The position numbers and the translations under genes are program-made. Shown piece after piece: positions 759-61,197 of a stretch of 64,000 bases of DNA. Location of the stretch: positions 2,604,001-2,668,000 of the forward strand of contig JAYWIR010000027.1 in assembly GCA_036172245.1 (NCBI GenBank), in the 5' to 3' direction. The stretch comes from Raillietiella orientalis. Taxonomy: Eukaryota. Position 1 is the stretch's first letter. The number at the start of each line of letters is the position of its first letter. The notes under the pieces were generated by a model. It was not told where the DNA came from, ran no database searches, and worked only from the letters and a program-made list of their open reading frames with translations.

Positions 759-809
759 GACCCGAACACGCCGGGGCGTTCCTGAAAATGTGAAATAACC
801 TCATAACTT
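759..809 (-). mobile_element. Remnant 3' terminus (stem-loop) of a Tx1-like family A copy
   Basis: The minus strand reads GAACGCCCCGGCGTGTTCGGGTCG, a variant of the family terminal hairpin. It lies 60 nt from the hairpin at 819-836. Confidence 0.55.
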
Positions 810-817
810 GTGGTTGG

Positions 818-1829: not shown

Positions 1830-2068
1830 GCTGACTTCCAGTCCCAGACAGTCAACGAAAGCATCCGGCCTCTGGCTAACATCAAGCCGCACCTTAAAGT
1901 GGCAGGAGTCGGCATTGAAGCTGCTGCACTGGAACCTTCCGTGCAACGCCCGCTGACACCATTGGACCCGGGGGAGGAGGTGGGGCCAAACTGCGGCAGC
2001 TGCGGCCAGAGAGAGTCCCTCCCGCACCTGCTCATGGAGTGTGTTTCCCTCCAGACCTTTTGGGAACG
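1830..2068 (+). mobile_element. Family A ORF2 fragment (C-terminal CCHC zinc-binding region)
   Basis: PNCGSCGQRESLPHLLMECVSLQTFWER. Near-identical to the reverse complement of about 15590-15765. Confidence 0.8.
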
Positions 2069-2074
2069 CTCTGA

Positions 2075-3195
2075 TCCCTTTTGGGAGTTTGGGGTTGACG
2101 AAGCATTGGAGAGGGATCCCTCCGGACGGGGGGAATCGCACCTCTCACCCTGGTTGTCTCCGAAGGGGAACCCGAAGGGAATCTCCTTCCTCATTCTCTC
2201 CGGAGGGACACCCCCTGGGAGAGGGGTGGTCTCTCCATTTCAACTTCTTCGAAGTGAACCCGGAAAGGATCCGCTTGTAGGAATTTCTTCTCCGGAGGGA
2301 ATCCGCAAGGGAACAGCTACTGTTCACTCCTCTGACGAGAACCCCGAAGGGATGCTTCCGAAACTCAGAAGGGGCGCTGCAGCTTCCCGCAGGGAATCGC
2401 TCTCTCTTGCTTCCTTGTGCACTCTGTGAAGAGGCGACGACTTGGAGGGACCCCCGAAACAGGGGGGTCCGCTCCTTTGAACAACTGGAGAGGTGCCCGT
2501 GAGGGATCCTGCTCCATCTTGAAACCAGAGGTGGTCCCCTGGTGACAGGGGTCCGCTCTCCGTTGCACGACCGGAAGGGGAACTCCCCACTCCTTTATTC
2601 CTGGAAGGACCCGAAGGTCGACTCCCATCGTTCCGGCCTTCATCGGGGTTTCCTGCTTAAACCACCACCGGTGCCATGCCCGAATTTCTCGGCCAACCAG
2701 TGCCGTTGCAGGAGAAACTCGGAACCCAACGACGCAATGGCGTCAGTTTCTGCCGAAGTATTTGAACCCGCGACGCATGGTGCCACGTGCGGAAGCCTTA
2801 ACCACAAAGCCTCCTACGCGAGCCCTCAATTTTTTGACAGTATTTTTTTTTATTTTATTTTTTTGTGTGTTCGTTTGCCTCCCCTTCCTATGTGCTGCCG
2901 AGGTGACCCCGCTGGTCTGCGTGCCAGATCCCGGCAGGTTCCTTCTCGTAGTTATAAGTAACGAGACAGAATCACACATCGAGCCACAGACGTTCATTTT
3001 TTATAGATACACGCCCCGGCGTGACCGGGTGTCAACCAGTGCCGCACTCGATTATGGACCAACCAGCGCCATCCTGCGGGGGGGAAATCGAAATTCACGA
3101 CGACGCACCCCTCGTTCTCGGCATCCACCCTTCCCCGGGCGGAATTCGAACCCACGACCCTCGGTGCCGCGCGCGGAGAGACTGCAGAGCTGCGA
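2075..3195 (-). mobile_element. Long tRNA-derived SINE, interrupted by a 327-bp insertion (2706-3032)
   Basis: B-box GGGTTCGAATTC on the minus strand at 3142-3153. After removing 2706-3044 the sequence is collinear with the uninterrupted copy at 14230-14895. Confidence 0.7.
2706..3032 (+). mobile_element. Chimeric insertion: inverted tRNA-like head (2706-2825) + family A 3' UTR and terminal hairpin
   Basis: Direct repeat CAACCAGTGCCG at 2694-2705 and 3033-3044. Minus-strand B-box GGGTTCAAATAC at 2758-2769. 2840-3031 matches the reverse complement of 15085-15270. Confidence 0.75.
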
Positions 3196-6559: not shown

Positions 6560-7557
6560 GTTTTCTCCGGGGACTCAGGATCGACTGAACCACTCTTAAA
6601 GGTCGTTCGCCTGGACGCTCCCTCCCCATCAGGCCTTCAGGGTCCCACAGGTGCATTCGCTAGCACCACCAAGCTGTGTGCCCGCTGCAGCCCCAGGCGA
6701 GAGCTCGCGGCCAAACTCTTCCGGCGCGCGCGTCTCCCGGCCGCAGTGCACCCGAAGGCAGGAGCGGCCCTGTTCCGGCGGCGTCAGGAGGCGGAGGGCT
6801 CGACTCTTCGAACGCCACCCACTTTCAGGGACAGCTGCTTCAGCAGGTGAGCCGCTGGCGGCACCGCTTAGCCGAGTCCGACTTCCGTCCATGGCCACCG
6901 TTGTGCTGTCCATAGCAACCGACGCCTTCGCGTAGAAAGCCCAGTAACCCGACGTTCAGTCCACTCCAAAGCACCGGTTCTGCTCACCAAAGCAAACCCT
7001 CTGGGCGCCCATAGATCCGACAGTCCGAGCTTTGGCGTCCAAGCGAGCCGGACTTCTCATCCATTTCAAGTTCGAGGACTAGTCAAAGTCACCTCGTCCC
7101 CAGTCAGTCGCTTTACCTAACGTGATTCCCCTCTTCCCTTCCGCCCCAACGAGTGCCAGCTGCCCTGAGGGAAACTTCGGAGGTAACCGGTCACGAGGTG
7201 GTTCGATCCGTCTTTTGCCCAGACTCCCACGACGAATTCGAACGTTAGTATCGCCACGGGGCCTCCACCAGAGTCGTCTCTGGAGTCATCCTGGCCAGGC
7301 ACGGGTCCAGCATCATTCGATGCGTTCCGACGGACAATCGCGCGTTTACGGGATGTCACGGGAGTGCTCCTGCGTACGCTCGAGAGGGAGCCGCAAACGG
7401 CCGCGAGAAACCTCCTGCGGGCGGATCTTCCCAGATTGGCTCGCGCGCTATCGGACACCCGCACCTCTCGTGTCCGCCCGCGGACAGCGACGCGCGTTGA
7501 CTCCTCCCTAGCGCGAAGGAGGAAGCCACGCGCTCGCGTGGGAAGACGGACGAGCGA
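6560..7557 (-). pseudogene. Decayed 28S (LSU) rRNA fragment, roughly from the 3' side of D2 to D7
   Basis: Collinear conserved LSU blocks on the minus strand: CCAGAG.ACGA.CTCTGGTGGAGG, CCTCCGAAGTTTCCCTCAGG.CAGCTGG, AACTTGAAATGGATGAGAAG, GGACGGAAGTCGGACTCGGCTAAGCGG, CCCTGAAAGTGGGTGGCGTT, CAGTCGATCCTGAG. Many substitutions and indels fall in normally invariant positions. Confidence 0.85.
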
Positions 7558-9039
7558 TGCCACCCGGATACGCCGGGACGTTTATTCAATCTCTCCATAT
7601 AGTCATGACAATACGTGGTACAAGGCCCCTCTAACGGCCAATAACACCGGACCTGCCGGAACACCGGGACGCAGCACGGCGTGACTCTCCTCGGCAGTAG
7701 AAGGGGATGGGGGAAAAAACAAAAAGAAAAAATAAAACAATAAGGCAGAAAAAAGAATTTAGAGGGTGGGGAAGGGATCACTGACCACTGGGAGGAGGGT
7801 CCATGCTTTGCAGGATGCCCTCGAGGTCCTTCTTTAGTCCACCCAGCTGGGGCCATACGGTAACTCTCTGCAGGAAGCGAACAGCATACGGGATGACGGC
7901 CCTCTCGTTGGCATCTTCATCTTCGGCTTCACTCCAGGCTGCCACAAACCCATGGATGCAGCAAAGTGCTTCCAGGGCTGCGGCTGGCTCCAGGGAGTCC
8001 CGCACGAAGAGAAGGCGGTAGACGTCTCTGTGGTTGTCGCCAACCGGTATCCCAAGGGTCGTTCCGAAACGTTTCCACAGGCGCCGGAGGGCAGGGCAGT
8101 CAACTATCAGGTGGGGGAGGGACTCCTGCTCCCCGCACCTGGCACACTCAGAGTTTACTCTCCCCCTCATCCAATGAAAGCGGCGGGCGTTGCAGGGTAG
8201 ACCTCAATGCAACAACAGGAGCGCCGACTCTTGCTACTTGAGGGGGAGGATCCTTAAACCATTCAATACCGGGGGCCACTTCAGGTCATCCGTCGGGATG
8301 CCGAACAGCTCGCCTTATCGCAAAAGTCCACGCGGAAGGACACTCGGGGTCGTGGCATCTGACAGCTCTCCCATGGTCCAACCGCTCATCTTCTCTCTGC
8401 CCGCGATCCGACAGGACTCTTGCCACTTCTGTGTCCGTCCGCTGAAGAGGGCCCTCCGTAGGAAGGGCAGCGCCGTAGCTAAAGGGGTAGTCTCCGCCCA
8501 TGTGCTCCTTGTGGTACACCCCAGAATGGTCCTCAGGGCGTAGGGCCCGAATCGCAGGCAGTTCCAGCTGTCATTTCTCTGGGCATTTAACTTCGCTCAT
8601 GTTCCAACAGGTTCCTCCATCCATGCGGAGTAGTTGGCGGGGCTGCATACCATCCAGCCGTTCTCCTTGGCAAGTGTGGCCATGCGTCCAAGGAGAAGGC
8701 CTCATCTTCTGATCTTCCGGCCGGGGCACAGAAGATGAGACGCGAGTCCTTGCGTCCTGGATACACAACTAGCTAGGAGGCGGGCCGGAACGCACCAAGG
8801 GGTGCTCCACAACTTCGCTGCGATAGCCATGGTGTGCCATCGCAGCTGAATTTTCAAGCGCTCCAGCGTCAGGAGGCCAAGACCGCCGTCCTGACGCGGA
8901 GCGCATATGTCCTGCAGCTTCACTTGGGGCCTCTCGTTGCCCCACAGGGCGATACGAAGAAGGTTCTTGGTTCGCTTCTTCAACTGGGAAGGACGGGGTA
9001 AACAAAAAGCAGGGGGCTGAGGGCTTGTCCGTCCTCGTT
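7558..9039 (-). mobile_element. 5'-truncated family A copy inserted into the 28S-like sequence
   Basis: ALWGNERPQVKLQDICAPRQDGGLGL…, CARCGEQESLPHLIVDC…ILQSMDPPPSGQ*. AATAAA + hairpin at 7561-7577. 14-bp TSD AGACGGACGAGCGA at 7544-7557 and 9040-9053. Confidence 0.9.
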
Positions 9040-9139
9040 AGACGGACGAGCGAAGAAGAGCGACGCGCCAGCGACCCTGCCCGGCCTCAGAAGGCGGGAA
9101 ACGAACGGGGAGCGCGCGCAAACGCGCTTCCACCCTTCC

Positions 9140-10680
9140 TTCAGGCACTCGCCGGTGCCTCCGGGTAGATTTCCCCCCGCGCGTCGGAAGAGGATCCTGG
9201 AATCCGCAGCTGCTTTTCGGCACGCTGGACGCGCGTCGAACCAGCCTCAGGGGAAGGTCTCTTCGGGGAGGAACTGACCTCCATCGCTGGATCGAAACGT
9301 ACGCGCGTGAGAGCGCGCACGGTGGCGCGACGGTGAGGGAGCAGCGCGGGAGAGGCTCGCAAACCGTGCCGGGTCTGCGCCTCTCTCAGGAAGAAAAGTG
9401 TCTCCAAATGTCCCTGGGGCCATCCACCTGAATTTGAAGGGTCATCGCCGGACGATCCCAGAATGGGCCGGAAGGTGGCAAAGCCTAGAGGCAGATGTGG
9501 GAAGGTTTCTTCTTTCCCGCGTCCACACTCCCCCGGGTCCAGTGGCGGAGACGCGCTTTGCATTGGGGGATCCCCAGACGCAAGGCCTGCAGCGCCAGCA
9601 CCTGCCACTATAGGGGAGGGTAGAGCTGTCCGTGAAGACAACGGGCAGCGCCAGATCTCCTGGAGGGACCTCGAGCAGCCGGACCCAACGTATCAGGCCT
9701 TCTAGTGGGACGCCGGCAGTTTTGGCGTTCCTCCAACTCCCGTGCCGTCCACTCACCGAGAAGTTTCCTTGCCTCTGAAACATCGCAGCAGAGTGCCTCC
9801 CAGCTTCCCGGATTGGGAGCGTATCCTTCTCTTCTCTTGGGAGGGGGCCAGCACCGGGGCAAGCGATGCCAGCAGGGTCTTCCGTGTGTTTCCCACGGCC
9901 TCCTGCAGCGACCAACGAGCGTAGACGCCGCGTTGCAGATGGAAGAACTTCGCTTCTCTCGAGCCGTGGGTCCTCCCCCTCGCACCAGCGGACTCCTGCA
10001 GCCAAGTGGTGCTGTTCGCGGACCAAACAGAGCCTCCAGGCGTTCTCTCTCACCAAGGCAATCGTCTGTCAGAGTTGATGCCCGTACCGGGCCACGCCCT
10101 TCGGTGTCTGACAGACGAGGACCGAAGTCCGTCGCTTCCGTCCGCTCGCTTGCTCGGCGAGGAGACGCTCCAAGGCACCGTCCGCAACTTCGCCGCGAGA
10201 GCGAATCTTCTTCGGAATGGACGCTCCGTGAGCCCGTCCGGAGTCTGAAGGCCCTGCCCACTGTCTTCACAGGCGGAACGCATAGGTCTTTCAAGCGGCT
10301 TCCCTGTGTCCCGGAGGGCTCTTCGGAAAGGGTTCTCAGTCCCTCTTTCGATGGTGACGAGGGGACGGAGGGGGAAAGAGAGGAGGGGCAAACAAGAAAC
10401 AGGGGGCGGAGGAGAGGAGTCACGACAGCGTTGCCAGCCGCAGCCCGTTCCGGCAAGTGAAGCTTGCCCTTCGAGTGCCATCTCCACTTTCTGGAAACGG
10501 CAGGACCCGGCTTCTGCGGGACGGAAGTCCCCCAACGAAACGCCAAGGTACTTCAAGTACCAGCCCATGGGATCCTCCAGGCGGATTCAGTCCAATAGTC
10601 CAACCCATGCCCCTCCCACTGCCACTACCGACGACTTTGCCCTGTTCGCCTCCAGACCCGTCCCACTCTTACCAGGAAGA
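9140..10680 (-). mobile_element. Decayed family A ORF2 fragment (end of RT to zinc finger)
   Basis: GTGLEANRAKSSVVAVG…YLKYLGVS matches the end of the RT at 60030-60155. GECGRGKEETFPHL zinc-finger remnant near 9500. Confidence 0.75.
9524..10570. repeat. About 1.05-kb near-identical copy of 61825-62871
   Basis: Base-by-base match at offset 52301, with only a handful of substitutions over the first ~900 bp. Nearly identical ORF translations appear in the ORF track. Confidence 0.95.
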
Positions 10681-10689
10681 ACAACAGTT

Positions 10690-11207
10690 GGATCTCCCGC
10701 GACAATGGGAACCCCCGGCGGCAATTCCAAGGACGCAACTCCTCCTCCTACGCGATGCCCTTCGTCTGGCCTCCGTCCAGCAGGGAGCCTCGCTAGCGGC
10801 TCCCTGCTGCCTGCACGGGATTTTAGCAGCGGTCTGGAGCCACGCAAGAGGAGCACCGAGCAACAGCACATCCACTTTGCTGGACGAGAGGATGGCAATG
10901 AGATGGCCCCACCTGAAGGACTGCATGCAGCAAGAGCTTGCCAGTATCCTCGGAAGAATGCAGAGGACCTCCCTCAGGGGGAAGTGACCCCTTCCCGCAC
11001 CCTCACCCCCACCCATGCAAGGTTTATTTGTTTCTTTTTTTTCTTTTCGTTTGCTCCCTTTCCCCTACTGCTGTGGCGGACCTCACCGGTCGAGGAACCA
11101 GTCACCCGGCAGGCTCCGCTGAAATGGACGTGGTTGGACCTATGGTCCAACCAGTCTTTGTAAGTGTTTATTTTTATATTAAATAAACGTTCCGGAGCAC
11201 CGGGTGA
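10690..11207 (+). mobile_element. Family A 3' end
   Basis: LLLLRDAL…QQELASILGRMQRTSLRGK*, T-rich tract, then AATAAACGTTCCGGAGCACCGGGTG (hairpin 11190-11206). Confidence 0.8.
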
Positions 11208-11226
11208 TAATCCTTTCTCCTACTTA

Positions 11227-11700
11227 GCGGTCGCCTTTAGAAAGCAGAGTCGGCACTCAGAGTGTTGTTCCTAAACGACAAGTTCCTCCTGACGGAAAGG
11301 GCTGTCCTCTGGAACACGTTCGTAGCTTCCCTCCTCTGACTCCCCTCCCTCTGCCCTGATTTCTGTTTTACCCCGTCTGGAGATGTAAAACAGCGGACCA
11401 GGGTCCTTCTGCAAAGACCCTTCTGGGGAACGCAGAGGTCCCGGGTCCGCTTGAAGGACCCATGCGTCGGGACTCCGAGCCCGGCCTCCCGATGCACGGG
11501 AGAAGTTGGAGCTCCGTCCCAAATCCGGCACTCTGGGGTCTTAGCAGCCGAGCACCCACTGGTGCGTCCCGGCCGGACTCCCGGCTAAGCGAGCAGCCGG
11601 TGCCGAGAGACTCGTCACGTTCCTCGTGCGCGACTACTGAGGGTCGTTCCGAAGCGGGGGACGCAGGGGTGCCAACCGCGGCAGACAGTTGCCTCGGTCC
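11227..11700 (-). mobile_element. Inverted family A internal fragment (post-RT GGLG region)
   Basis: The minus strand encodes PVHREAGLGVPTH, equivalent to APRQDGGLGL in 8702-8983. Confidence 0.55.
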
Positions 11701-12740
11701 ATGAGGACAGATGGATTTTCTGCCGCCCCACCAACCGTAGTTGCTCCGGCATGACCGGGTGTCAACCAACCGCAGTTGCCCGGAAACAGGAAGCGATTCA
11801 GGCGCGGGCGAAAAGAAACGGAGCCATCGCGATGCCGGCTATCCACAAACTTCGCTCGCCGCTTGCTGCAGGAAATCTACGGCTTGCCCAAAGAGAGGTT
11901 GGAGCGGGAACACCCCTGGGCATGGAGACCCCACTTGGGGCATGCCCGACACGACGCAGCAAAGTGGGCATGGAGACAGCCTTGCGAGATGGGTAATATC
12001 CTGCGAGATAGCGAGAAAAGCAGCTGGGATTCTGGACCACGCGTCAACTGATACGCTTTTGCCCCCAGCCGCCCTACCCAGAGGGATCCTTCGCAGGACG
12101 GAGCTTCTTGAGATTTCCCTGGGGGCATCCGAAATTCTCCCAGTGTTCGTGGACAGCTCCACGCTTTCCCTGAAGTGACGCGACTCTGCATTCGCAGATC
12201 CCATGCAACGCACGAGCCCACTCCTGCACGAGGGAGTGGGTGGGTGGGTGGGGCCCCGGACTGGGGCTGGGTGCAGCGAATGGGAAACCTTCCCGTACCT
12301 GTTGCTGGATTGCGTCGCCCTCCCGAGTATCCGAGAACGCCCCGCTGCGCCTCCCCCCTCCCCCTTCCCGCTCCTGACAGAAGACGGCAGAAAGGTCGCG
12401 CGACTCGATGTCGCCCCCAGCCTCCCTGCTGTGAGATTGTGGCAGCGAGAAGCCACGCCGAAAGAGGCTGGTCACACGGTGACGTCACCGCAACCGTCTG
12501 CTCGTTCGTGAGGGAGGTGGCACGATGGCCACTTCTCCCTGCCAGCAGCAAGAGGAATTTGCCTGCATCCTCCAGAGGATGCTGAGGGAGCCAGGAAGGA
12601 ATCCTCGATCCCTTCCCTCCTCAGCACATTCTAAGACCCCCCCCCCCACCTTTCCTGTGCGCACCTCATCGAGCGGGCTGCTCACGAGAAGCAGCGCCTC
12701 GGGGGCATCTCCCTTCATGGTGGGAGGCCGCGAAACCGCT
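11701..12740 (+). mobile_element. Decayed family A ORF2 C-terminal region + start of 3' UTR
   Basis: GILRRTELLEISLG, CSEWETFPYLLLDCVALPS and QQEEFACILQRML align with the ORF at 56287-57174. Confidence 0.75.
11745..11764 (+). mobile_element. 20-nt insertion consisting only of the family A terminal hairpin
   Basis: TCCGGCATGACCGGGTGTCA is flanked by ACCAACCG(T/C)AGTTGC at 11730-11744 and 11765-11779. Confidence 0.8.
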
Positions 12741-14229: not shown

Positions 14230-14895
14230 GAAAGGCTTATGAAGCTCTTTAACACCGCCTTCTATGAATCCCGGATGGACTCTGGAGGAAGGAATCCGTT
14301 CTTCTTGCTCATGGGAAGGAACTCCGAATGGGATCCTCCAACCTGGTTGTCTCCGAAGGGAACCCCGAAAGGAACCTCTTCCTTATTCTCTCCAGAGAAA
14401 CCCCCTGGATGAGGTCACTCCAAAGTGGATCCTGTCGAAGGGATCCGCTCCCTGTTTCCTCTCCCTCTGAAGGGACGCTTCATCATTCCTCCCAAGGGTC
14501 ACCGCTCCCCAAAGGGAGCAGCGCACTTCTTGACCCTCTAGAGGGGTGTATCAATCCACCAGCCCTATGGTACCCCTTGGAAGATCCCCCTCACTGTGGT
14601 AAAAGGAAAGGGGGACAGCTGTCTTTTCGCAACTGGAGGGGAACAGTCCCGAAGGGTTCTTTGGTGTCCTGGAAGGACCCCGGAGGGTCTAATTCCCAAT
14701 CCCAGTCACTCAACGGAGGCATCTAGCTCCCACCAGTGCTGCACCCGGAGCCAACCAAGGCCAACCAGCGTCATCTTGCGGGAGCGACTCGAATCCCTCG
14801 GCGTACCCCTCGTACTCGGCATCGGTTCTTCCCCGGGAGGGATTCGAACCCACGACGCCTAGTGTCACGTGCGAAGAGACCGCAGCTGAGCGGCC
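14230..14895 (-). mobile_element. Long tRNA-derived SINE (uninterrupted copy)
   Basis: B-box GGGTTCGAATCC on the minus strand at 14840-14851. The body is homologous to 2075-3195 and 29270-29520. Confidence 0.7.
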
Positions 14896-15080
14896 TTCAA
14901 AAGGAGTAAGGAAAGAAGAAGAAAAACGAAAAGTGAAGGCGACAAAGAAGATTTAATAACGGGCTAACCCTCAGCAAACGCACGGGCCCATTCCACGTAA
15001 TGAGTCCTACGCTACAGAACAGAACCACTCCTTTCACCTCCGAATGAGACGTCGTCTGCTTCGTGGAGGGACCATCTTGG

Positions 15081-16079
15081 TTGACACCCGGTCGCTCCAG
15101 GGCATTTATTTATAAAAAACAAACGTCTGTGACTGGACGTGTGATTCTGCCTCGCTACTTATAACTACGAGAAGGAACCTGCCGGGATCTGGCACGTAGA
15201 CCAGCAGGGTCGTCTCGGCAGCACAGGGGAAGGGGAGGCAAACAAACAGAAAAAAAAATAAAATAAAAAACATTCAGTCAAAACATTGGGAGGGTCCAAA
15301 AAGGGATCAACGAGTGCTGGAGAACTTCCTCTAGATCCTCGTAAGGATGCCGGCAAGTTCCTGTTTGAAGACTCCTAGATGGGATCATCCTGACGCTGTC
15401 CTCATGAAGGGGGCAGCAAAATAGATGCCGTCCCTGTCGTTCTGGCCTCCTCTGGAGTTGCTTCATGCAGCTACGGTCCCATCGCTTAGGCAGCAAAGTG
15501 CTGCTAGGCTTGAGTGTGTCGCGGAAGGAATAGGAAGCTCTTTCAAACGTCTCTGGGTTTGCCGCCGAGGTTCCAAGGGTCGCGGCAAAGCGTTCCCGAA
15601 AGGTCCGGAGAGAAACACACTCCATGAGCAGGTGTGGGAAGGACTCTCTCTGGCGGCAACTGCCGCAGTTTGGCCCACCTTCTTCCCCCGGGTCCAATGG
15701 TGTGAGCGGGCGTTGCACGGGAGACTCCAGTGCAGCAGCAGGATTGCCGACTCCTGCCACTTCATGGGGAGGGTGCCAGTGTTCCAACACGCTGGGGGTC
15801 ACTTTACCTCTTCCAGAGGCATTCGTAGCAGCTCTCCTCAGCGTAGCAGTCCTTTTGGAGGGACGATCGGGGTCGTGGCGTCCGCCAGATCCCGAGTTGT
15901 CCACGTACCCAAATGTTCTTTCGTGTTTTGTATTATGCATGCCACTTCCCACCTCGCTGAATGTTGAGTATCCAGTGCTCCCCTTAGGGAGAGCAGCACT
16001 GGGACAAGGGGGGTGAACGAAGCCCACAGCAGATTTCTAATGTTCCCCAGGATCTCCCTCAGCGGCTGCTGAGGAAGAT
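15081..16079 (-). mobile_element. 5'-truncated family A copy
   Basis: LREILGNIRNLLWA…WTTRDLADATTPIVPPKGLLR, PNCGSCRQRESFPHLLMEC. AATAAA + hairpin at 15085-15102. TSD CCATCTTGG at 15072-15080 and 16080-16088. Confidence 0.9.
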
Positions 16080-19000
16080 CCATCTTGGCGGGTGGCCACT
16101 CGGCCGTCCGAGCTCCTCCTCCACCCAGCCTAGAAACCTAAGCGCTCGCGCTCACCGAAGACTCAGCACCTGGCAGCTGGTGTGCGTGGGGAGTTGAGCG
16201 AATCCCAAGCGACGACACCCTCGAGCGCTCCCGAAATCCCCGAAAGTAAGATAGGGTGTGCGGAGAAGACTGACGGCTGGCGGAGGCACCGGGACTCCGG
16301 CGCGTAACGCGGGCGAGCCGTCGGTCCCGGATGACGCGGACAGCTCGTTCGAAGACGCGTCCGAAACAGCAGAGGCGAAACCGCGGTGGGGCAAGGCGGC
16401 GATGCGGCATTGGGGAAGGTCACACAAAAAAGTCCCATCTGCCTCCCCTAGGGCTTTGGGGGAAAAAAAGGGAAAAACCCTGAGTGGGATCCGATGCAGC
16501 ACAGCTCCAGACTCTTCAGAAGAGTCCCTCTGGAAACGGGGCGTCACCACCCGTCGTCGCCCACATTGCGCCGCGGCTGCCACTCGTAACCTTTCGTTGA
16601 TGAGGAGCCAAGGATTGTGCAACGGAGCCGATCATTACAAAAGTCTGCTGCTACTGCACTAATCAAAAAAAAAAAGATTCGCCAGCTGGCACACCTGTTC
16701 TCTCCTCTTTTTTTTTTTTTTTTGTACTCGCAGCCCGAGTTTTATTTCGTTTTTCGATACACAGGGCGTACCTTGCCGTATCCCATTTTAAAGTCTTTTC
16801 CCATCTTAATAAGGCCGACTCGGGAGAGAACGGTAAGCATGCATCTGAATGAATCTCCCTCAGCTCTTGTTTTCCAGCGATTTTTTTTTTCTTCCTCTTT
16901 TTTTGTTCACGATTCTATTCACTTCGGTTTCCAAACTTGCGTTCGGATTGGACCCTTCGATCTTCCTCAAGTTCCTGGGCGCTTAGGAAAATTGTAGGAG
17001 CGACTCGCAAACTTGGGGGGTCGGGAAACTTGCAGTTTCTGCTTCGCGCGGTATTTCCTCCTCTCTTTCCTTTTCCCGACCCGACGCCAAGTCGCCATCA
17101 TCTTGTTTACAACCATCTCCTCCGAGAATTTTGCATCTCTGAAAAGCTACCCGTAGAAGCCACGCGCAACAGCCCTCCAGCCTCCGCTGGTCTCCCAGGT
17201 CGCGCGGCGTTCGAAGACTCGCGTCCCCTCTCCTCCCCACCAACATCCATCCCTTCTTGGAAGACGAAAATGGAGACCCGCGGCGACAGCGACTGAACTC
17301 GTTCCGGTTTGAGAAGGGGGCTAAGGAAGGGCCCCTCAAATCGGTCTCTAAATGGAGAAGAATCCTCTAAATATAGAAGGAGCGCCTCACCTAGTAACGG
17401 CAGCAACAGGAATGCCGGCAGTGCGCGTGGGAGGCAACTGGGAAATGGGGAAATTGGCACGAATCGACGATGCCTGTGCAGATGCATTTCACCAATGGCG
17501 TCGTCAGCGAAGATCTTCGTCGCGATGGAAATCGGTTTTCAACAGTCTTCGATTCATCTCTTTGTGAATCCTTCCGCGAGACCGAGGACGAGTTGAACCT
17601 GGAAAAATGCTGCGACAAAGTTTCAACTACTCACGTCAGTGATCCGTATCGATAAGAAGAAAGAAAAAAAGATAAAGACAGTGATTGGTAACGATGGCAA
17701 CCCATTGTCTCCCAAAATTTCTTTTCCGTTTCACCTTTTGTTTGATGGAGGGCGGGGAGGGGAGGAAGGCGGGGAGGGGGAAGCTTTCTCGAACTGTTTT
17801 AGAGTTGCTTATTCAAAATTCTGGCCCTGCTTGTTGCGACAGATCCAAGTTTTGTTATGCATTATCAATTTTTATGCATGGTGGTTTCATGCCGTTGAGT
17901 TTACTTTCCACAGCTCACCTCCACATTTTAATTAGTCGAACACCTTGTGATTTTCCTCCAATGGACTCGGTTACGCGCGGATTAGAAAAAAAAAAAAAAA
18001 ACTTTTTTTTTTCTAAATAATAATGATGAATACTGGTGTCCTTCGACTAGTAGCTTGGATCCTGAGGGATTGATGACGCAAATCCCATTTGTGTACAGAA
18101 GTAGTGAGAATGGGCTCCTTCCCGCCGGGCGCTCCTGCAGCCGGGTTTGCCTCTTTCCTCCGCAATCAGGACAAGAAATCTGCGAAAAAGCACAGCTGTC
18201 ATGAAGACGCCTGCGGCTATCTTTTAAACTCCAGATGGACATGTGGCTAGATGAAAGTGAAGTGATTCGGTGATTTGTTAAACTTTTGCTGTTGCATTGG
18301 TCTCTGAATAGGTCGTGACTCCTGCACGCCGTCGCTGACATTCGGACTCGCTGAAGCCGGAATTCGGAAACCTGCTGCTGCTGCCGAGGAAAGCATATTC
18401 AGGACCAGATATGACAAATGCTCCACCGAAGAGTGAGAGGCAAACAAGATGAAGAAAAGCACCCATTTATAATGTCTTCTAATGGTTTAGGCCAAAGTCA
18501 GCCCTTTCTGAGCAAAAACAGCGTTTCGTTCCGCTTCGCGAGTAATTGGTATCGAAGAACACAGCAAGAGTGGTGCCATATAAACCGGTCATTATGTATG
18601 TGTATATAAACTACAGATCTCTTCAGATTGTTTTTTTTTTAAGAAAAAAAAAATCTGGATGATTTTCAGGAAAACTTCTGGGCGCATCCACGGCGGAGTG
18701 AAAATTTTTCGTGTGGGTGGCAATTTGCCTTTGGAAACTGCAAATAGCCTAGGTCAAAAAAAAAAAAAAAAACACCTTGGGAAAATTGCCGTTAGATAGA
18801 AATTTTCTTTACTGATGTCTCAGCATGGTGGTATTTCAGAAAAGAGGAGAGGAATAAATATGTTCGTCAGTTGTATTCTGCTCGAGCCTACTCCCCGTTG
18901 TGTCAACACTCGATGGTATGCTCCAAGATTTTGCATACGAGATGCATATTTTGAAAAGAACTCCTTGACATGGAGGTTCCCATTAGAGGAGGCCCATCAC

Positions 19001-19950
19001 ATGTAATCCAAAAGAAGCCGATCAGGAGGCGGATTCTCCAAATTCAGTTTATAGAGTGGCTTGAAGAGAGCCATGAAAATGTAGTCCGGATACGAATCTC
19101 GAAAAGTCCTTCATGCCGCAACTCATAGAAGACAAAAAAAAAACAAAAAAAACACTGAAATCATTACACTGCGATGAAGCTAATGTAAAGTTATGAGCCA
19201 GGAAAAAAGCCATTCGTGTCGGTAACCACATCCGATATTTCCTCAAAATACGCCACTTTCGTCATTGATAATCAAATCTACGCTCTGCTACCATCCGAAA
19301 GTAATTTTTTGCTCAACTTGTGCTTCGTGGGTTTCTTGGTTAACCCGAGTTATCAACCCTTAATCAACCCTTGCGGGCAAAATACCGGGAAACGACTGCT
19401 TGTACAACAAATGGAGCTAACTGTGCATCAACCAAAACATGCCTGAATGCGTGACCAACAGAAGCATTATTCAAAGTGCTAAATGACGTAAGAAAACTTA
19501 CTAAAGAACAGGCCGATATACATTATCCAACGTTAATCGATCTGGATTAAAAAAAAACAAAACAAAAAAAGTGGGACTGGAAGCAAAATTAAAAGAAGCC
19601 CAGATAAAACATCGTGGAAATGACTTCCCCGGGAGCGAGCATTTGGGATTGCGTGCAGCTCCATTCAAACATCTGCTCTAAGAACAACATTGGAAGACCT
19701 TATGCTGTCCAGCAGGAGTCATAATTGCTGAATTTTTGCACCAAGGGTGTCTCCAACTGTTCATTAATGGATCACTGTAAATAAATCAAATTAGACGTTT
19801 CTAATTAAATATTTCTTTTTAAAATGGAAACCCCTCTTGAACACAGTGAGCAAGGGAAACTACGGATTACAATGACATCTTGGAAAAAAGAATGGTGGGC
19901 GATCAGAAGGGACTTGGTGTACATGCCTCCTTGCATGCTTTGGGAATTAG

Positions 19951-21747: not shown

Positions 21748-21748
21748 C

Positions 21749-31540: not shown

Positions 31541-34168
31541 AGCTGCTCTCCCGGAACCCGCAAATGGAACTCACTGCTGCTGATGGAACCACTACCGCTA
31601 CCATCGCTACCGCCCCGGGAAGCGAAGACCAGGAGCATCACCGCCGTCACCGGCACCTGCGCAGCTTTCGCGGAATCGCCTCGGTCAAGTTCACAAAAAT
31701 GTCGCGAGGGCGAAATGAGCGACTGAAGGGGTGGGGAAAGGGGGCAGCGACGCCGCTGCTCTGGACACGCCAGGGTAGTCGGGACCACAGGATTCTCCGC
31801 TGTATCGCAGGGTTGCGTGCGCTTTTCCTTGGGGAGCGCCGGACGCCGCGCATCCGGCACGTCCTGGCACGCTGGCGGTCGAAGCCTCCGAAGGGAAGCG
31901 CCTCCATGAATCACCGGGATTCCCACGATCCCTCATTCTTCACTTTCCCTCCAACTGGAACCTTCTTCTCCTCTATCCCTCAAGGGAAGCAAGTGACAGT
32001 GGCACCTTCAGGATTGCTTCTCCTGGAGGGAAAGGAATGAGAAGGTGCTGTGGATTCCCTGTCCGTTCCCTTCCGTGTTTGCGTGAAAGATCCAGGGAAT
32101 TCTCTGGGCCCACCAAACGACTCCGAGTTCTTTCCCGTCACCTCAGGAAACCGCTAGTCGCGCTGCATGAAAGCGCAGTGGTGGAGGTTGCTGGTGCTTA
32201 ATGGTGGTGCTGGGGGAAGGGGATAGCACTTCTTCCCCTCTTCTTCCTCCCCCAGGAAAACTCTCCGGTAGCCCAATCCGCAGTGCGGGTCACGGAATGA
32301 GCGTTTTTTTCCGGTTCCTTGTCGGTGCTGATGCCGCCGCTGCCTCGCTCCGGATGCCTCCGGTTCGCCGAAGCGCGGCTCCATAATGGCGCGTGTTCGC
32401 CGGGCAACGAAGAGCAAAGTGGGACGTGGGGATACCCCGAGAGTGGTCATCAGCAAGAAAGTCCGCCTTAGACGCCAGCTGCTCCGAGGGGAAGCGTCCA
32501 TCACCCCGAGGGTATCTCTGCCTCCGTCGTCGCACCCCTTCCATCCCTCTATCCGAAGTGACAGTCCGGCCAAAGGTGACGACGACCTTTGGCCCTGTCT
32601 ATCCGAACTTCAGCCAAGTTTCTTTTGTGACCCGCGGTGAGCCGCTGGCCTAGCCACCGAGAGTGCGGCAGACTTCTCGAGGCACCTGCTACAGCTTTCC
32701 AGGCAGGAGGCTGCTCTGCCTCTCACGTCATCCTCGCTTTTCGCGATCGCACCAACGCGGATCGTTCCGCGGCAGGGGAGGGGAGGAAGAATTTCCGCAC
32801 TGGACGTGTGACTGCCGCCGCCGCGGGTTTCCTTCCTCACGCGAGGCTGACGACGTCCTGAGGTGTGCCGCTGGGCTACTCGCGTGCCAGCCGAGGCAAA
32901 CAATTGGAAGGAAGATCTCGCCGGGCTGGGGTCCCCAAGGATGGGGAGAAGCAGAGATTTCGACGACCTCTGGAAAAACACGGGAAGCGAGGGCGACGCC
33001 GTAACGCGCAAGTATTCGTCACCGCTGAATGACACAATGAAGGAGACGTTCTTTGGGGAGAGTAGGATGAGGGTCCCCAAAGAAAAGGGGAAAAATGAAT
33101 CACTTGGCTCTGGGAGTCGGGAGGGCGTGCTCCCTTTCACGTCTGCATGACCACATCGCCGTCAAAGTAAAGTTCCTCGGCAGAAAGCCACCTGCCAGGA
33201 CCGAAACGCAGGTGTCAAAGGCAAGGAATGCGGCCTGAGGCCTGAACCGGACAAAGGGAGGCACCGATGCGTCTTGCACGCCGCGGTTTGTTGTTTTCCG
33301 ATCATATGGGAGGGAGGGAAGGAAGGAAGGAAAGGGGGAGGGGGGCAAACAACAAGCTTCCAGCATCGATAACTTTCGAGCTCGCACCTCGGAATCAGTA
33401 TTCAGCCGTGTTTTCCACTCTTCCTCGAGAAAGTTTGAAGCGGAAGGAACGTGGGAGATGTGATGACTGCTTCTGCCTGTCATCGTGAACGAAGCGAAGG
33501 AGGTCACGGAGAAATGAATTCATATAAGCCCCAATTAAAGGGAAATGGGTACACTTAAGCGAAAATACTGCTGCATCCTCTGTTCAGCTGAAAACTCGAC
33601 GCGCACACGCGCCTCGATAAACGCGTGCACGAAACGGGAGGAACACAGGCGGGAGATTTACCGGTTTGGAAAAATCTTCCTCTTTTCTCCGAAGGATGCG
33701 CGTTCCACAAACTGCCGCGTTCTCTGGAAGCTTATCTGACATTTGGGCGGAATTTCACTTTTAAAGCACAGACACGCAAAAGGGAGACGAGACGGTCGTC
33801 GGAAGCTGAGGCGTGGACGAACACACGGTTAGCACCATCGCATACCCTAAAGGTTATTTGGAACACGGGGCTGTTCTTCGAACAGAGCCTTGGCGGAAGC
33901 AATGGACTGAGGTGTAATGAAATAAGGAGGTGCCACGTGAAAACAAGAACGGAAAGCGCAACGGAAATCCGCCTTGCAACAATGCTCGCCCGCCATGTTC
34001 GCCCGAGGCGGTGGATGCTGCTGCCCACCACAGTTGACCGTGTCCCCGTCTCGATATGCATGTATATATATAATACGCCACCCTTAAATTGGGTCCAGAA
34101 TCGAAGAAACGCTCAGACTGGGAGGGAGTCTCTTCATTTCCTCAAAGACACGTTATTCTTAAGGACGT

Positions 34169-34307
34169 TTGTCACCCGGATATGCCGGGGCATTTATTAA
34201 ACTAATTTCTACAAAATTAGTTAATAAAGTCAGTAAACAGGTTTTTGTGGGGGAACAGTTGGTTCTCCCACGCTGGCGGACTTGTCGGGTGCCGGTGCCG
34301 AGACCGG
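34169..34307 (-). mobile_element. 139-bp 5'-truncated family A insertion (3' UTR only)
   Basis: Perfect 12-bp TSD TCTTAAGGACGT at 34157-34168 and 34308-34319. Ends AATAAATGCCCCGGCATATCCGGGTGACAA. The UTR resembles 57970-58110. Confidence 0.9.
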
Positions 34308-37300
34308 TCTTAAGGACGTATCCGTGGTCATCATCAGCCGGAACCCCCCCTCCCTCACATCCTGGCTGAAGAAGCAATCCGTCGCATACAGTCTTTTTGT
34401 ATTCTCACTGTGGGATTTTAAATAACAGGGGAATTTAAAAAAAAAAAAAAACAAAAAAAAAAACAAAGGGTTTTTAAAGCCCGAAATCAATACGCGCTGT
34501 ACAATCTGATCCCTGGGTTCCCTGGAGACTCCATCACCCATGTACGCGCTCGGCTTCTGGGAGCTTCGTGCTGAAAATCGCACTTTTCGTGGAGGAATGC
34601 TGAAGTGATGATTATGGTGGACTGATGATGATTCGTGGGGAGTTCTTGCGTGAAGTGGATCGAGCCGAGCTGCGTGGACTACAGGCAGGAAGACGGCGAT
34701 TGCAAGTGTTCCGTGTTATTCAGGCGGAGAGAGGATCGTAGCCAGTAAGCGTTGCAGGTGGGAAACTGATCACCATGGATCCTGGGAGGCGGGCAGAGCG
34801 CCGAGCTTTCCAGGCGAGGATGGTTTCTCACAAGGAAAGAAAGAACTTGTTGCCCTTTGTTTCGTTGGATTCAGGAGCTAACTCTTCAGCCACTGTTCTG
34901 CAGAGAAAACACAGGAAGGAATGCACGCGAAACACGAAACACAGAAAGAAAGGAAAAAAAGAAAAGAAGAAATCGGTCGATTATATCAGATGTTGATTTT
35001 GTCGACTATTAGGATAAAATTTCCAGAGCTGTCCACTCCCGTTGTTCTGACAGCAGTCCGGAAGATCTTAGCAGGATTCGCCAATGATGGACTGACGAAG
35101 CTGCTATTGGAACACACGTCCTGGATGTTAAAGCACAGGGAAAAGAATCCCATGGACACGGATGGACCGGCGGGCATTCGTTACCTTTCTTGGGTTTGGG
35201 GAGACCTCCCAAGGGGAGGAAAAAAAGATCAGCCGTTGCGATTTTCAGATATCCGGTTTTGATGGTGAATGTCCGCATAGTCCAGGGGGAAATCCTTGCT
35301 TGCCAGTGAAGAGCGCTCCATCCACTCGGACCACAGCACGAAAGTGAGCTCACGCCCAGCCAAAGAGGACCGCAGGCAGCGCGATTAACTCGGCCTCGAC
35401 TCCATTAGCAGGAGCTTATCCCGGGAGGGAAGTCCAGCAGAGTTTGCGAGGGTGGACAGGCGGTGGTGGGTTTCCCACTCGCAAGTGGTGCGTGTGCCTA
35501 CTCGATGGTCTTCCCACCCGCGATCAACTCTGCGCCGCAAATGGATCACTGGGTTAATCATCCTCTCGATAGCCGATCATCCGACCATAATGTATGCTTT
35601 TTCCCACTCGCAGGCGAAATAGCCTGTGTTTTTTTTTTGTTTATATTTGTTCCTTGTACTTCTCGTTCACGCGCACAATCATCTGGTTCCCTCACCTCCC
35701 CCTCTCCCCCTCATCCTCTCCCGAAACTTTCGTTAAATCACGCTCATTACGAGCTCTGTTATAGTTATGATATGACAAGTTGAGTGTCGACTTTCTATTA
35801 CAGGCGCGCTGCATTTGCATGCCGTGCACACAAACGTGCCGTTGCCTGGCCACCCCTCTGTCATGGCAGCGGTCCGGGAACGCCACCGTCGGCAGGCGGA
35901 CGTCTCGGCACGCATTCGACCTGCCCAACAATGCGAGGGACTTTCGTCCGCGGAGGAGCGGGAAAAAAATAAAAATAAAGGAGGAGGGGGGAGGGGGAGG
36001 AGAAACAGAAAAAAAAAAATCAATAAATCCGGGAACTGCTGACACGCCTCCTCCTTTCGAAGCTTCAAAGATCACGACTTGAGAAGTTTGCACTTTTTTT
36101 TTTTTTTTTTTGCAGCGTTTCTTCATTTCGTAATCTCAGTAAAAGTTTCGCCGTTTTGTTTTGTTTTGTTTTCGTATTTTCTTTTGGGTGGTGGTGGTGG
36201 TGGTGCTCGCGTGGGCACTTTAAATCAGCGGAAAACGGAAAAGAGCTGTATCCACCAGACACAAGCATCAAGTTTTCTCAATGCACTGTGAAAAAATGGA
36301 GAAAAAAAAAAGGGAGGGGGGGAGGGGGGAGAAAGAGGGAGAAAAGCTGCGGATGTGAATGAACCAACAAACATCCCACCCTGCTGACTGCGTGGGGGAA
36401 CATGCGGCTACCTAACGTTCTTACGACCCCCCCCCCCCTGTCGGAAGATTTACACCGCAGGGTTTATTTTTCGGTTCTCAGCGGAGCGGATCAGGAATTT
36501 TTTGGCCCCCGCGCATTTCCCTCTCGGAAACGAGTTCCCTTTCTTCCCGGGTTTCGAGATGCCACTTTTTTTTCTTTCTTTTTTTTTGTTCCGGATACTC
36601 ACCCCCAAAAAAAAAGAAACTGCTCCGCTCGTACGATTGAGGGGGGTCGCATCCCTCGGCCATTCGGATGCTCTCGCGGGCCTGACTGCGTCATTTCCGG
36701 AGAGTCACCGTTCGTGCGATCTTTCAGATGCTGCCCCCGGCGTTCGCGGAGAGAGGGGGGTTGCCCCGCCTGGTCCTCTTGTCACTTGTTGCCAGGCGAC
36801 CACGCATGCACCTTCTCGACGGTGTTCCTCCCCTCCTAGCTCCTGACCCCACCCTGATATCTCTGTCCCTCGTCCGCTGTCGAAAGCAACCCGCGTTCCG
36901 TTCTCCCGGACGACGGAGGCGAACGACCCACGAAATCTTGGGGCTGTGATTCTTGACCACCCCTGCGGCTTTCCTTCCCGAGGGGCCTGGAGAGCCGTCG
37001 CGCGGTCGACGATCCCGTCCGCTCGACTCCCCCATCGCCCTCCCCTCCTTCGTCAGCAATCCAGGGCGGCAACGAACTCCTCCGCTTCTTTTTGCAGGAG
37101 GGTGGCTCCGTCTTCCTCTTCTACGGGAGAGGAAGGACAGCAGGGGGGGGGAGGGTCACGACCCACGAGAGATGCAAGTCCGCTCTCGCGCCCCCTCCCG
37201 TTGGTGCCTCCGGCTTTTCCCGTCTTTCTTCCCCTCCTTCCCCGCTGCTGCCGCGAAGGGGACACGCCGGACAGCGACGGGAACCCTTTCGCGCGCTCGC

Positions 37301-57630: not shown

Positions 57631-57893
57631 GAACTATTTAGCTCAACTTGCTCAACTTTCATCTCAACAGCCTATTTATAGCGGTAAGATGCGTAGGCCT
57701 TCTGCCAGGAATACCCTTAGCATTAACATTAACACTACTGAATCTTAGACCTTGTCTACTGGAACATGAATGCTGGCACTTGTCCACGGAAATATTAATA
57801 TTGGCAATTGTCCCGTGGAATATTGATATTGACACTTGTCTATTGAAAACCTTGCGATTACTTAAAAACTGTTGCCCAGTCGGAGTCGCGGCG

Positions 57894-58700
57894 CTGCCAC
57901 CCGGTCACGCCGGGGCGTTCATTTAAAACTCTTCTATACGTTAGTGGTTTTTCACCCAGATATGCCGGGGCATTTATCATTGAAATTTTATCAATAAAAT
58001 TTTATAATAAAGTCTTAAGTTTGTTTTTTGTTTTTCAGGCAGAACACATGGTTCTGCCTGTCATGGAACACTTGCTGTTACCGGCCCTCAGGCCGGTGAG
58101 GTCCTCACCGCTGGCGAAGGGGATGGGAAAACCACAAAAAAAGCAAAGAAAAAAAAACACGAGGGGAGGGCACTGTTTTTCGGGGAGGGGAGGACATGGA
58201 AGGGATCACAGTTCACTGCGAGCGGTCCTCTGCATCCTGGTTTGGATGCGAACAAGTGCCGGTCTTAAAGTTCGTAACCGGCGCCATCCGGAAGCCTTCT
58301 CCATGGAGATGGCTGCCCAGTGAATGACATTCCAGCTTCTGTGGCCTCTCCTAGACGCAATCCATTTGTCCAGGATTTCGCGTATGCAGCGGAGAACTGC
58401 TACACACGCGGCTGCTGGCAAAGCGTCCCGCATCAGAAGGCGACGGAATCATATGACCTTTGGATCGCTCAACGGAAAGTTCAGAGTCAACGATAGTCGA
58501 TTCCGCATGGAATGGAGGGCGACGCAGTCGATGATCAGGTGAGGGAAGGTTTCCCTTTCCCCGGACTTTGCAAAATTGGCATCTACACTCCTACAGGTCT
58601 AGTGGGAGAGGCGTGCTCTGCAAAGGAGCCCCTAATGCAGCACAAGCAGCGCCGTCTCTTGCCAATCCAAGGGAAGGGTGCCATTGTCCTATAGAGCTGA
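57894..58700 (-). mobile_element. Family A 3' part with two tandem terminal hairpins
   Basis: RETFPHLIIDCVAL…MRDALPAAACVAVLRCI…RMQRTARSEL*. Hairpins at 57898-57915 and 57953-57970. Confidence 0.85.
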
Positions 58701-58719
58701 GGTCCACTTCTCGAGTAGT

Positions 58720-60730
58720 CCGCCCTTCAGGGGGTTTTTTCTGCCTCCGATGAGGCAGGACATTTCCCACGATGCCTCTTCCTGGCTGTCCCTAGCGTTC
58801 TTTAGGTAGGGCAGCACGGAGGCAAGGGGGGTAAACGAACTCGGGGAGGATGGGGGGAGGGAGATTCGGGGAGGAGGTTTGTAACGAAAGAGCATATATC
58901 CACTCTCGACGTTACGCGAGGACCCCCAACGTCCATCGCCTGGCCGAATATCGAGCCGAGACCGAGCGCCAAACCTGGCAATCAGGGTCGGCCAGTTTGC
59001 TGGACGACCTGGGCCTGGAACGCTCGGCCCCTCCCACGATAAGGCACTTTGTGCGGAGTTTTGATTCCTCCCTTTACGCCAGAGCATCTCCCGAGCGGGA
59101 TGCCTCACGGTTCTTGCTTCCGGATGGAGCCCCGGTAATAGGGAGGAGGAGATGGAAAGCCTCGACGAGCCTTTTACGACCGGCGAAATTCTCGCCGGTA
59201 TTAGGAGGCTCAAGAGGCGTAAGGAGCCAGGGGAGGACGGCCTGCCCGCGGAGTTCTTCCAGTGCTTCGGGGCAGAGCTGGCGCCCCTGGTGCTGCAGTT
59301 GACGCGGCTGATCCGAGACGAAGGCGATGTTCCCGCCTCGTTTCGGTCAGCCAGGGTGAGGCTCCTTCCGAAAGGAGGAGACCTCAGGAAATTAAGCAAC
59401 TGGTGTCCGATCACGATTGTGAACACGGACGCCAAGTTGCTAGCCGGGCTGTGGGCTACCCGTCTGGGGCAGGTGGCCAATTCCATAATTAGCCCGGAGC
59501 AGACTTACGCTGTTCCCGGGCGAAGTATAGAGGCCAACCTCTTCTTCGCAAGCACATGGTTCGAAGTGCAAAGAGAAGAGAGAATGAAAGGGCGAATTAT
59601 CGGCAACCCTGCTTTGGGGGTGCCGGCTAGGCAGGGAAGGGACACCCGGGTGGGGAAGGGAGCCCTAGCGATCGCAGTCGATCTCCATAAGGCGTTCGAC
59701 TGCGTGGACCAGGAGCTTCTACTGGAGCTCCTGGATCGCATGGGCATTCCACCCTCCTTACTAACCTACCTGCGCTCCTGCTGGTGCAGCGCTATAATAA
59801 AGGTTTCTTTTAGTTGTCAACAGGTGTACGGCGTGCCGCTGCGGCGGGGCATACGGCAGGGCGATAGCCTGTGTCCCCTGCTCTTTAGCACCTACTTCGA
59901 GTTGGTGCTAAGAGCGTACAGGGCGTGCCCCGGTAAGCCCGCCGTATCGGCGTACGCTGATGATATTCTGCTCTTGTTGCCCATGTCCGCCCCGGTACCA
60001 CTTACGAGGATTTCTTCGATCTGCTAAGCCGTGGGACTGGACTGCGGGTGAACAAGGCAAAGTCGTCGGTGGTGGCGGTTGGTGTCACGTGGGTTGGACT
60101 GCCTGACTGGATCCGCTTGGGGATCCCCACGGCCAGGTACCTGGAGTACCTGGGAGGGTGAGCCTGAACTGTGCCAGGTGCTGGGAAAGGGAATCCTTTC
60201 CCCACCTGTGAGTGGACTGCGTTGTCCTCCGACCCCTTTGGGAACGCTTCTCGACGACCCTCCAGATCCTGGTTGGCAACCCCCCTGGGACGTTCTACGG
60301 CTTCTCTTTGTGCGGAACTCCCTGTAACCAGCCTCAGTCCTGGCAGCACTTTGCTGCATCCGAGGGATTGTGGCTGCGTGGAGCGACGCCATCAGAGGAA
60401 ACAGCGAAAGGGACGCCATCGAATTCGCAGTTCGCTTCCTGAGGATTGCGACCAGATGGTCCCACCTGGGAAGCATGCAGATGGACCTCAAGGACATTCT
60501 GCAAAGGATGGACCCTTCCTTTAGCAGAAAGCGATTCCTTCCCTTCCCTCCAAAGCCTTTTTCTTATCTGTTTTTTGTTTTCTTTCTTTTTTTTCCCCCC
60601 ATCTCCCTCCGCTGCCGAGGTGAGTCCCGTCGGTCTGTGTACCGCCGACCCGGCAGGTCCGATGTTGTGTTGGCCGTACCACGAATGTATAGACATTTTA
60701 TAATAAACTCCCCGGCGTGACCGGTTGGCA
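58720..60730 (+). mobile_element. Family A reverse transcriptase domain (Tx1/L1 clade, disabled) joined directly to zinc finger + 3' terminus
   Basis: ORF 59152-60027 contains KEPGEDGLPAEFF, LLPKGGDLRKLSNW.PI, EQTYAVPGRSI, DLHKAFDCV, GIRQGDSLCPLLF and SAYADD. After a frameshift come GLRVNKAKS…YLG, an abrupt jump at about 60157 to CARCWERESFPHL, and AATAAA + hairpin at 60702-60727. Confidence 0.9.
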
Positions 60731-61197
60731 GCCCCGAATCCAGCGGGTAGGCGGTGCAGAGGGAACTTCTCGCAGAACTCGCGAACCGAGTGCTTGAAAC
60801 GATCCCAGTCCGCAAGATTCCGGAGGGTGACACCTCTCAGGTATTGACGGGGATGTTCCGCCGCACCTGGGAGGTTCGTCCATTCCCTCGGTAGACGCCA
60901 CGCCTTGGATGGGGGTCGCTTTTCGCGTGGGCAAACCTCGAATATCAACTGGGAATGGTCGGACAGCGTCGAAGTTTCCCTCGTCTGCCGACCCGTGGGC
61001 ACAGGTCGCGGTCGATACTGTCCACCATTTCCGGTCTCGGAGTCGCGGCGGAGGAAACTCATTAATCCGACAATAGCGCGAATCAAACGAGTCGAGAATG
61101 CTCTGTTGCCACGGGCAATGTTAAAGGGTTTCTGCTGCCCGTCTTTGGCGCCACAAGACAAGGGTGCCGTCATTCCCGTGCAACACGTGTTTAGCAG
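60731..61197 (-). mobile_element. Fragment of the APE endonuclease C-terminus/linker of a Tx1-like ORF2
   Basis: LSDHSQLIF…PPSKAWRL…WDRFKHSVREFC matches the SDH…W(K/R)L…W..K..R.FC pattern of L1/Tx1 ORF2. Confidence 0.65.

Follow-up and report, generated by a model that had tools for sequence, protein, structure and literature searches.

A probable tail-only insertion of a hairpin-ended LINE between 15-nt direct repeats in Raillietiella orientalis

The 64,000-nt stretch of Raillietiella orientalis DNA analysed here, which is called the window throughout, is rich in decayed LINE fragments. Between positions 11730 and 11779 it contains a segment of 20 nt that is bracketed by two direct repeats of 15 nt each (Table 1). 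The initial annotation had described this arrangement of 15 nt, 20 nt and 15 nt, and its letters and coordinates were found to be exactly as claimed. The flanking repeats are identical at 14 of 15 positions, with a single T/C difference, and the segment between them is made up of a 5-bp hairpin (TCCGG/CCGGG) with the loop CATGA, followed by TG and then by the tail TCA. A Pfam search of the ORFs that overlap 11371-12620 returned no family at E ≤ 0.01, and no paralogue of the region 11100-12270 was found within the window by BLAST except for a 26-nt match between the segment with its immediate borders and a LINE end at 3013-3038. The possibility that the locus is a diverged copy of a tRNA-like repeat, designated X, was also considered but found no support, since alignment with MAFFT gave an identity of 40-44% and BLAST gave no match.

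Table 1. Positions of the micro-insert, its flanking sequences and the LINE copies in the window to which it was compared
Feature	Positions	Strand	Evidence
Upstream target-like motif CCAACCGC[ggcagac]AGTTGCC, preceded by GGGGTG	11673..11694	+	Local alignment
Left flanking repeat (target-site duplication), ACCAACCGTAGTTGC	11730..11744	+	Letters read; 15-mer scans
Full LINE-like stretch, matching the 3' terminal module of subfamily (a)	11743..11768	+	BLAST; exact 12-mer; alignment columns 31-56
Minimal LINE-derived insert, TCCGGCATGACCGGGTGTCA, 20 nt	11745..11764	+	Letters; 20-mer search; fold; alignment
Right flanking repeat (target-site duplication), ACCAACCGCAGTTGC	11765..11779	+	Letters; 15-mer scans
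Reference copy 1, subfamily (a), 5'-truncated, with nested insertion, inside tRNA-like repeat X1; 1.16 kb	1874..3038	+	
Reference copy 2, subfamily (a), at least 0.95 kb; end AATAAAT-GCCCTGGAGCGACCGGGTG-TCAACCA	15078..16032	-	
Hairpin-tailed LINE, 1482 nt, with exact 14-nt duplications TCGCTCGTCCGTCT (minus strand) at 7544/9040	7544..9053	-	
5'-truncated hairpin-tailed copy, 137 nt (34171-34307), with 14-nt duplications at 34157/34308, 13/14 identical	34157..34321	-	
Composite LINE stretch, 3143 nt, with exact 14-nt duplications CGCCGCGACTCCGA (minus strand) at 57880/61037	57880..61050	-	

The pieces are short, and their shortness is the only point in favour of a chance resemblance. With up to two mismatches allowed, the flank 15-mer occurs at these two sites only in the window, where 0.23 occurrences are expected, and two or more were reached in none of 100 shuffles. 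The 20-mer of the insert, with up to three mismatches, occurs three times (11745+, 3015+ and 57895-) against an expectation of 0.00. A scan of the whole window for direct 15-mer repeats with no more than one mismatch and a spacing of 17-100 returned four loci, of which three are simple-sequence tracts, leaving the 11730/11765 pair as the sole repeat of this kind outside simple sequence in 64 kb; the same scan averaged 0.35 loci over 20 block-shuffled windows. The 12-mer GGGTGTCAACCA, with which the LINE-like stretch ends, is found exactly three times in the window, once in the micro-insert and once at the end of each reference copy, at 3038(+) and 15078(-), where 0.37 would be expected and where a count of three was seen in 0 of 100 shuffles. 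Taken over the 15-mer, the 20-mer, the 12-mer and the window-wide repeat scan, these controls refute chance as an explanation, and we assign it a negligible probability.

The LINE-like stretch is identical to 3013-3038 at 24 of 26 positions (92.3%, BLAST), and this match, together with the shared GGGTGTCAACCA, bears out the identification of the insert as the 3' terminal module of a LINE whose family is represented in the window. The stretch amounts to 26 nt because the match runs 2 nt (GC) into the left repeat and 4 nt (ACCA) into the right repeat. The insert had been described as consisting solely of the hairpin, which is not so, as the hairpin is followed within it by the tail TCA(ACCA) of 3-7 nt. 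The two longer copies of subfamily (a) part company immediately after ...TCAACCA, and the micro-insert ends at the same point as they do, with the ACCA junction in common. On the other side, no LINE sequence was found 5' of the hairpin at the micro-locus, that is, upstream of alignment column 31, and there is neither an AATAAA nor an A/T-rich stretch in that position. The source copy of the micro-insert is absent from the window, because the nearest copy differs from it at 2 of 26 positions. Among the 12 hairpin modules in the window, this one is the only case in which the tail stands by itself.

Copy 1 ends in ...GGGTGTCA|ACCA, and this ACCA is native to the target repeat too. It has no target duplication, as repeat X1 halts at 1873 and picks up again at about 3035, and a 15-nt duplication is therefore not universal in subfamily (a). 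A 12-nt candidate duplication for this copy (CAACCAGTGCCG, at 2694 and 3033) was rejected, both occurrences being native to two different copies of repeat X and thus explained by paralogy. In its upstream part, copy 2 shows homology to the ORF2 C-terminal region found in other LINE copies of the window; a 12-nt duplication with one mismatch at 15868 was likewise discarded for this copy, as it lies inside the LINE homology, which extends to 16032. By our own estimate, 12-nt matches with one mismatch of this kind arise by chance at a rate of about 0.5 per module. The repeat with the tRNA-like T-arm (GGTTCGAATCC, minus strand) is present in three copies (1539-1873 plus 3035-3199, 2133-2826 and 14326-14895), and ARAGORN detected no tRNA in the window, these three copies included. 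LINE copy 1 interrupts one of the repeats at CCC|ACCA, with no duplication, and a further copy of the repeat is nested inside that LINE.

A fuzzy search with the 19-nt core GCCCCGGCGTGACCGGGTG yielded 11 hairpin modules, and a twelfth (57953-) was spotted by eye. The core is nearly invariant across the 12, and 11 of them carry short tails that are not A-tracts, the module at 56042- having AAAAAAA. Directly 5' of the hairpin, AATAAA is found in exact form in six of the 11 other modules and as a one-base variant in two of the 11, and the micro-insert has target sequence there. When the 26-mers were folded with ViennaRNA, each gave 5 bp, a bulge and 2 bp at -6.6 to -9.3 kcal/mol, and the folding energies of the modules were no better than those of shuffled sequences (z from -0.6 to +0.03). 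Over the 12 modules, 86.9% of the 84 cells are paired, against 27-58% in slid registers. Column shuffling gave no sign of covariation, as 380 of 500 shuffles paired equally well and a two-sided change occurs in one cell only; the one-sided stem changes mostly preserve G-U wobble pairs, and in the micro-insert the initial stem base is T and not C, which leaves a U-G wobble. The hairpin structure of the modules is thus plausible but not demonstrated. In the minimum-free-energy folds two extra pairs form across the bulge, and their 5' bases in the micro-insert, G11743 and C11744, lie inside the left repeat. The initial annotation put the end of the insert right at the 5' base of the stem, which is correct for the 5-bp stem TCCGG/CCGGG, but with the extended helix this end can be placed only to within 2 nt.

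Two paralogous LINE 3' ends (751-867 (-) and 57890-58001 (-)) each bear two hairpin modules, arranged in tandem at a distance of about 55-60 nt. After the first of these comes ...AACCA, just like at a genuine terminus, which suggests a subfamily with an added second tail, gained for example by read-through into, or insertion beside, another tail.

The reverse transcriptase encoded at 59065-60024 matches RVT_1 at 6.8e-18, and among solved structures it matches human LINE-1 ORF2p best (7e-36 to 5e-35, or ~1e-35), with R2 at 7e-12. By sequence comparison the source elements are L1-like, their reverse transcriptase being closest to L1 ORF2p, where the assignment itself concerns the copy ending at 60709+ and subfamily (a) is tied to that copy only by a DNA similarity of 66-71%. 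A zf-RVT match at 56290-57213 reaches 23.8 bits, below the cut-off of 27.5, and no endonuclease domain was found in the 150 of 263 ORFs of at least 110 aa that were scanned, the LINE copies there being 5'-truncated. Two further LINE fragments, at 10543-10683 and 10616-11001, adjoin each other in opposite orientations; in the copy that bears the reverse transcriptase they correspond to 59984-60154 (inverted) and 60229-60548 (direct), a layout that looks like a 5'-inverted insertion of the 'twin priming' type.

Elsewhere in the window, a direct duplicate of ~1.05 kb (9518-10571 and 61819-62872), whose copies are 98-99% identical and spaced 52.3 kb apart, represents a segmental duplication or else a young repeat. 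ORF pieces at 47107-48289 (+) and 51015-51590 (+) contain the domains DM13 (1.6e-15) and DOMON (3e-16) and are probably exons of a host gene. An A/T-rich island extends over 18000-26000, with 36-44% GC compared to ~60% around it, and an ORF within it (20392-20991 (-)) shows a weak Glyco_transf_61 match of 26.3 bits, just below the cut-off.

A duplication of 15 nt is typical for this family, as three hairpin-tailed copies in the window have duplications of 14 nt (Table 1). For the exact ones, we estimate that a 14-mer would be matched by chance within 8 kb upstream at any of 32 offsets only ~0.001 times. The flanks of the micro-insert had been called a 15-bp target-site duplication; they do behave as one, at a length in keeping with those of the three copies. 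Approximately 210 nt downstream (minus orientation) of the 3' end of the 1482-nt LINE (hairpin 7561-7579) and its 14-nt duplication there is a fragment of eukaryotic LSU rRNA (6672-7331 (-); model positions 673-1449, 104 bits), which could be a piece of an rDNA pseudogene, or else the LINE could have landed in rDNA-derived sequence.

The 137-nt copy has a flanking duplication, and severe 5' truncation therefore does occur in the window. This copy is of importance for the possibility that a longer 5'-truncated LINE was inserted at 11730-11779 with a 15-nt duplication and that the part from the left duplication up to the hairpin was deleted afterwards. Old copies in the window are indeed heavily rearranged and nested, and the GC shared at the left junction might just as well be microhomology from a deletion; however, the breakpoint would have had to fall within 0-2 nt of the boundary between element and duplication while sparing all 15 nt, a coincidence that is not needed for the direct insertion of a truncated copy, and the 137-nt copy shows that short primary insertions occur. 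A later deletion is for these reasons considered very improbable.

The junctions of the micro-insert overlap with its target on both sides. On the left, GC forms the last two bases of the repeat and also the first two of the module; on the right, the tail TCA|ACCA runs into the duplicated target, which itself begins with ACCA, either as microhomology or as the priming register. With these overlaps counted, the element-derived part is 20-26 nt and the stagger between the cuts is 11-15 nt. The target of the micro-insert reads GCCCC|ACCAACCG, and copy 1 has the junction GTGTCA|ACCAGTG, for which the paralogues of the target repeat read CCCACCAGTG and CACCACCGGTG. AACCA also closes the tails of two modules in another subfamily (819- and 57953-), with further element sequence after it, and ACCA thus appears to be element-borne. 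In L1, T-rich nicks pair with the poly(A). The simplest reading of the junctions in the window would be that a nicked bottom strand ending in ...TGGT-3' pairs with the terminal ACCA of the RNA, and it is also possible that the endonuclease has a preference for CCC|ACCA, which is present in both of the two resolved targets.

The target-like motif upstream of the locus (11673-11694) is interrupted and lies 57 nt upstream; its local alignment score of 22 was reached by 11 of 500 shuffles, so that the likeness is of marginal significance and may be due to chance. If it is real, the local history would be more complicated than one clean insertion. A third duplication left by tandem re-insertion was rejected as its origin, as the 37 nt separating it from the left repeat do not finish in a LINE tail and the likeness is marginal. 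Seen as a degenerate third copy of the flank motif, in a region that is a mosaic of decayed repeats, it would fit with the 50 nt being native to an unrecognised repeat or a local duplication, or with a tail that was captured as filler during the repair of a staggered break, with no target priming involved. Against this, the insert ends where the two longer copies end and at the same ACCA junction, a simple tandem duplication of 35 nt would have produced two hairpins and not the order A-B-A, the motif is only marginally significant, and the identity of the locus to repeat X is only 40-44% (MAFFT). An origin as native sequence or as filler therefore seems improbable to us.

The best explanation, to which we give a probability of about 0.75, is that the insert is a tail-only and extremely 5'-truncated product of target-primed reverse transcription (TPRT), copied from an L1-like, hairpin-tailed LINE of subfamily (a) that has no poly(A). 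The sequence identities, the duplication and its family-typical length are observed, and from these we infer the enzymatic steps. The endonuclease of the element would nick the bottom strand immediately to the left of ACCA within ...GCCCC|ACCAACCGYAGTTGC|CCGG..., the unfilled site being expected to read ...GCCCCACCAACCGYAGTTGCCCGG..., minus the 35 nt. The freed ...GGTTGGT-3'OH would pair with the terminal ...ACCA-3' of the RNA and prime the cDNA, and only the tail of 3-7 nt and the hairpin would be copied, giving a cDNA of 20-26 nt. So short a cDNA could arise if the enzyme halted at the foot of the helix or if the template RNA had been cut there beforehand. The top strand would then be cut 15 nt downstream, its ...TTGC-3' end would join the cDNA through the 2-nt GC microhomology, and fill-in would create the duplication of 15 nt, or of 11-15 nt when the overlaps are assigned to the element. 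The micro-insert is most likely about as old as the two longer copies; its repeats differ at 1 of 15 positions, and it differs from the nearest copy at 2 of 26.

Two mechanistic proposals of the initial annotation have to be revised in this light. The hairpin would not be the first templated sequence, as the tail TCA(ACCA) lies 3' of it and would be copied first; copying that begins at the 3' end is the standard model for all LINEs, and nothing about it is newly shown by the micro-insert. That the reverse transcriptase can abort right after the stem was an overstatement for a single locus with a 5' junction ambiguous by 2 nt, and an abort at the stem is not established, because a pre-cut template RNA or a later deletion would look alike.

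Monocots are said to possess a stringent L1 lineage. The LINE copies in the window resemble stringent-type LINEs: their GC hairpin is conserved and lies a few bases short of the 3' end, they lack poly(A), and their reverse transcriptase is of the L1 type, but recognition of the hairpin by a protein is only putative in these copies and covariation lends no support to the fold. For the stringent-type LINEs UnaL2 and ZfL2-1/2, the cited text of PMC4176376 describes recognition of the 3' stem-loop by the reverse transcriptase. No partner SINE with the same tail was identified in the window.

Short mRNA retrocopies of up to 300 bp are described with a peak of target-site duplication length near 15 bp (Terai et al. 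2010, PMC2831318), and truncated templates were proposed in the same source for short human retrocopies. The joining of prematurely ended L1 cDNA at its 5' end through microhomology is presented as an accepted model in the part of PMC2912911 cited here, and the GC overlap at the left junction of the micro-insert is a microhomology of this sort. As far as the retrocopies are characterized in the cited portion of PMC2831318, the micro-insert is like them in that the 3' end of the template is kept and its 5' part lost, in the duplication of ~15 bp and in the microhomology at the 5' junction; unlike them it is far shorter (20-26 nt) and has no poly(A) tract, and its source would be a hairpin-tailed LINE, whereas those retrocopies stem from poly(A) RNA copied by mammalian L1. 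A limited literature search, which is no proof of absence, found no report of a tail-only LINE insertion of ~30 nt or less. A metagenome scan with the 16-mer GACCGGGTGTCAACCA produced at least 117 loci and was set aside: the rest of the module was upstream in 0 of the matches listed, the best of which had 3 mismatches in 10, and the matches are regarded as random bacterial ones because the pattern is too short.

The locus would be an extreme case of a known process; being one old locus only, it exemplifies mechanisms already known and establishes no new one. If the TPRT reading is true, the micro-insert represents a natural minimal template: for this hairpin-tailed L1-like family, synthesis would begin 3' of the hairpin, inside the terminal 7 bases, and even a cDNA of some two dozen bases would be capable of integration with an ordinary staggered cut. 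Tail-only scars could then account for the subfamilies with two hairpins in tandem that are seen in the window, and since scars this short escape repeat annotation, the activity of LINE endonucleases may be undercounted. It is conceivable, though in our view unlikely, that this genome regularly gains tail-only insertions as a by-product, and that an RNA of 20-26 nt, comprising the hairpin and ...AACCA and held and protected by the LINE protein, is enough for priming on a nick of the CCC|ACCA type and for integration. If tail-only insertions do prove to be regular, such unannotated 'tag scars' would mark where the enzyme had started and failed, and would give the priming register of a stringent L1-like element.
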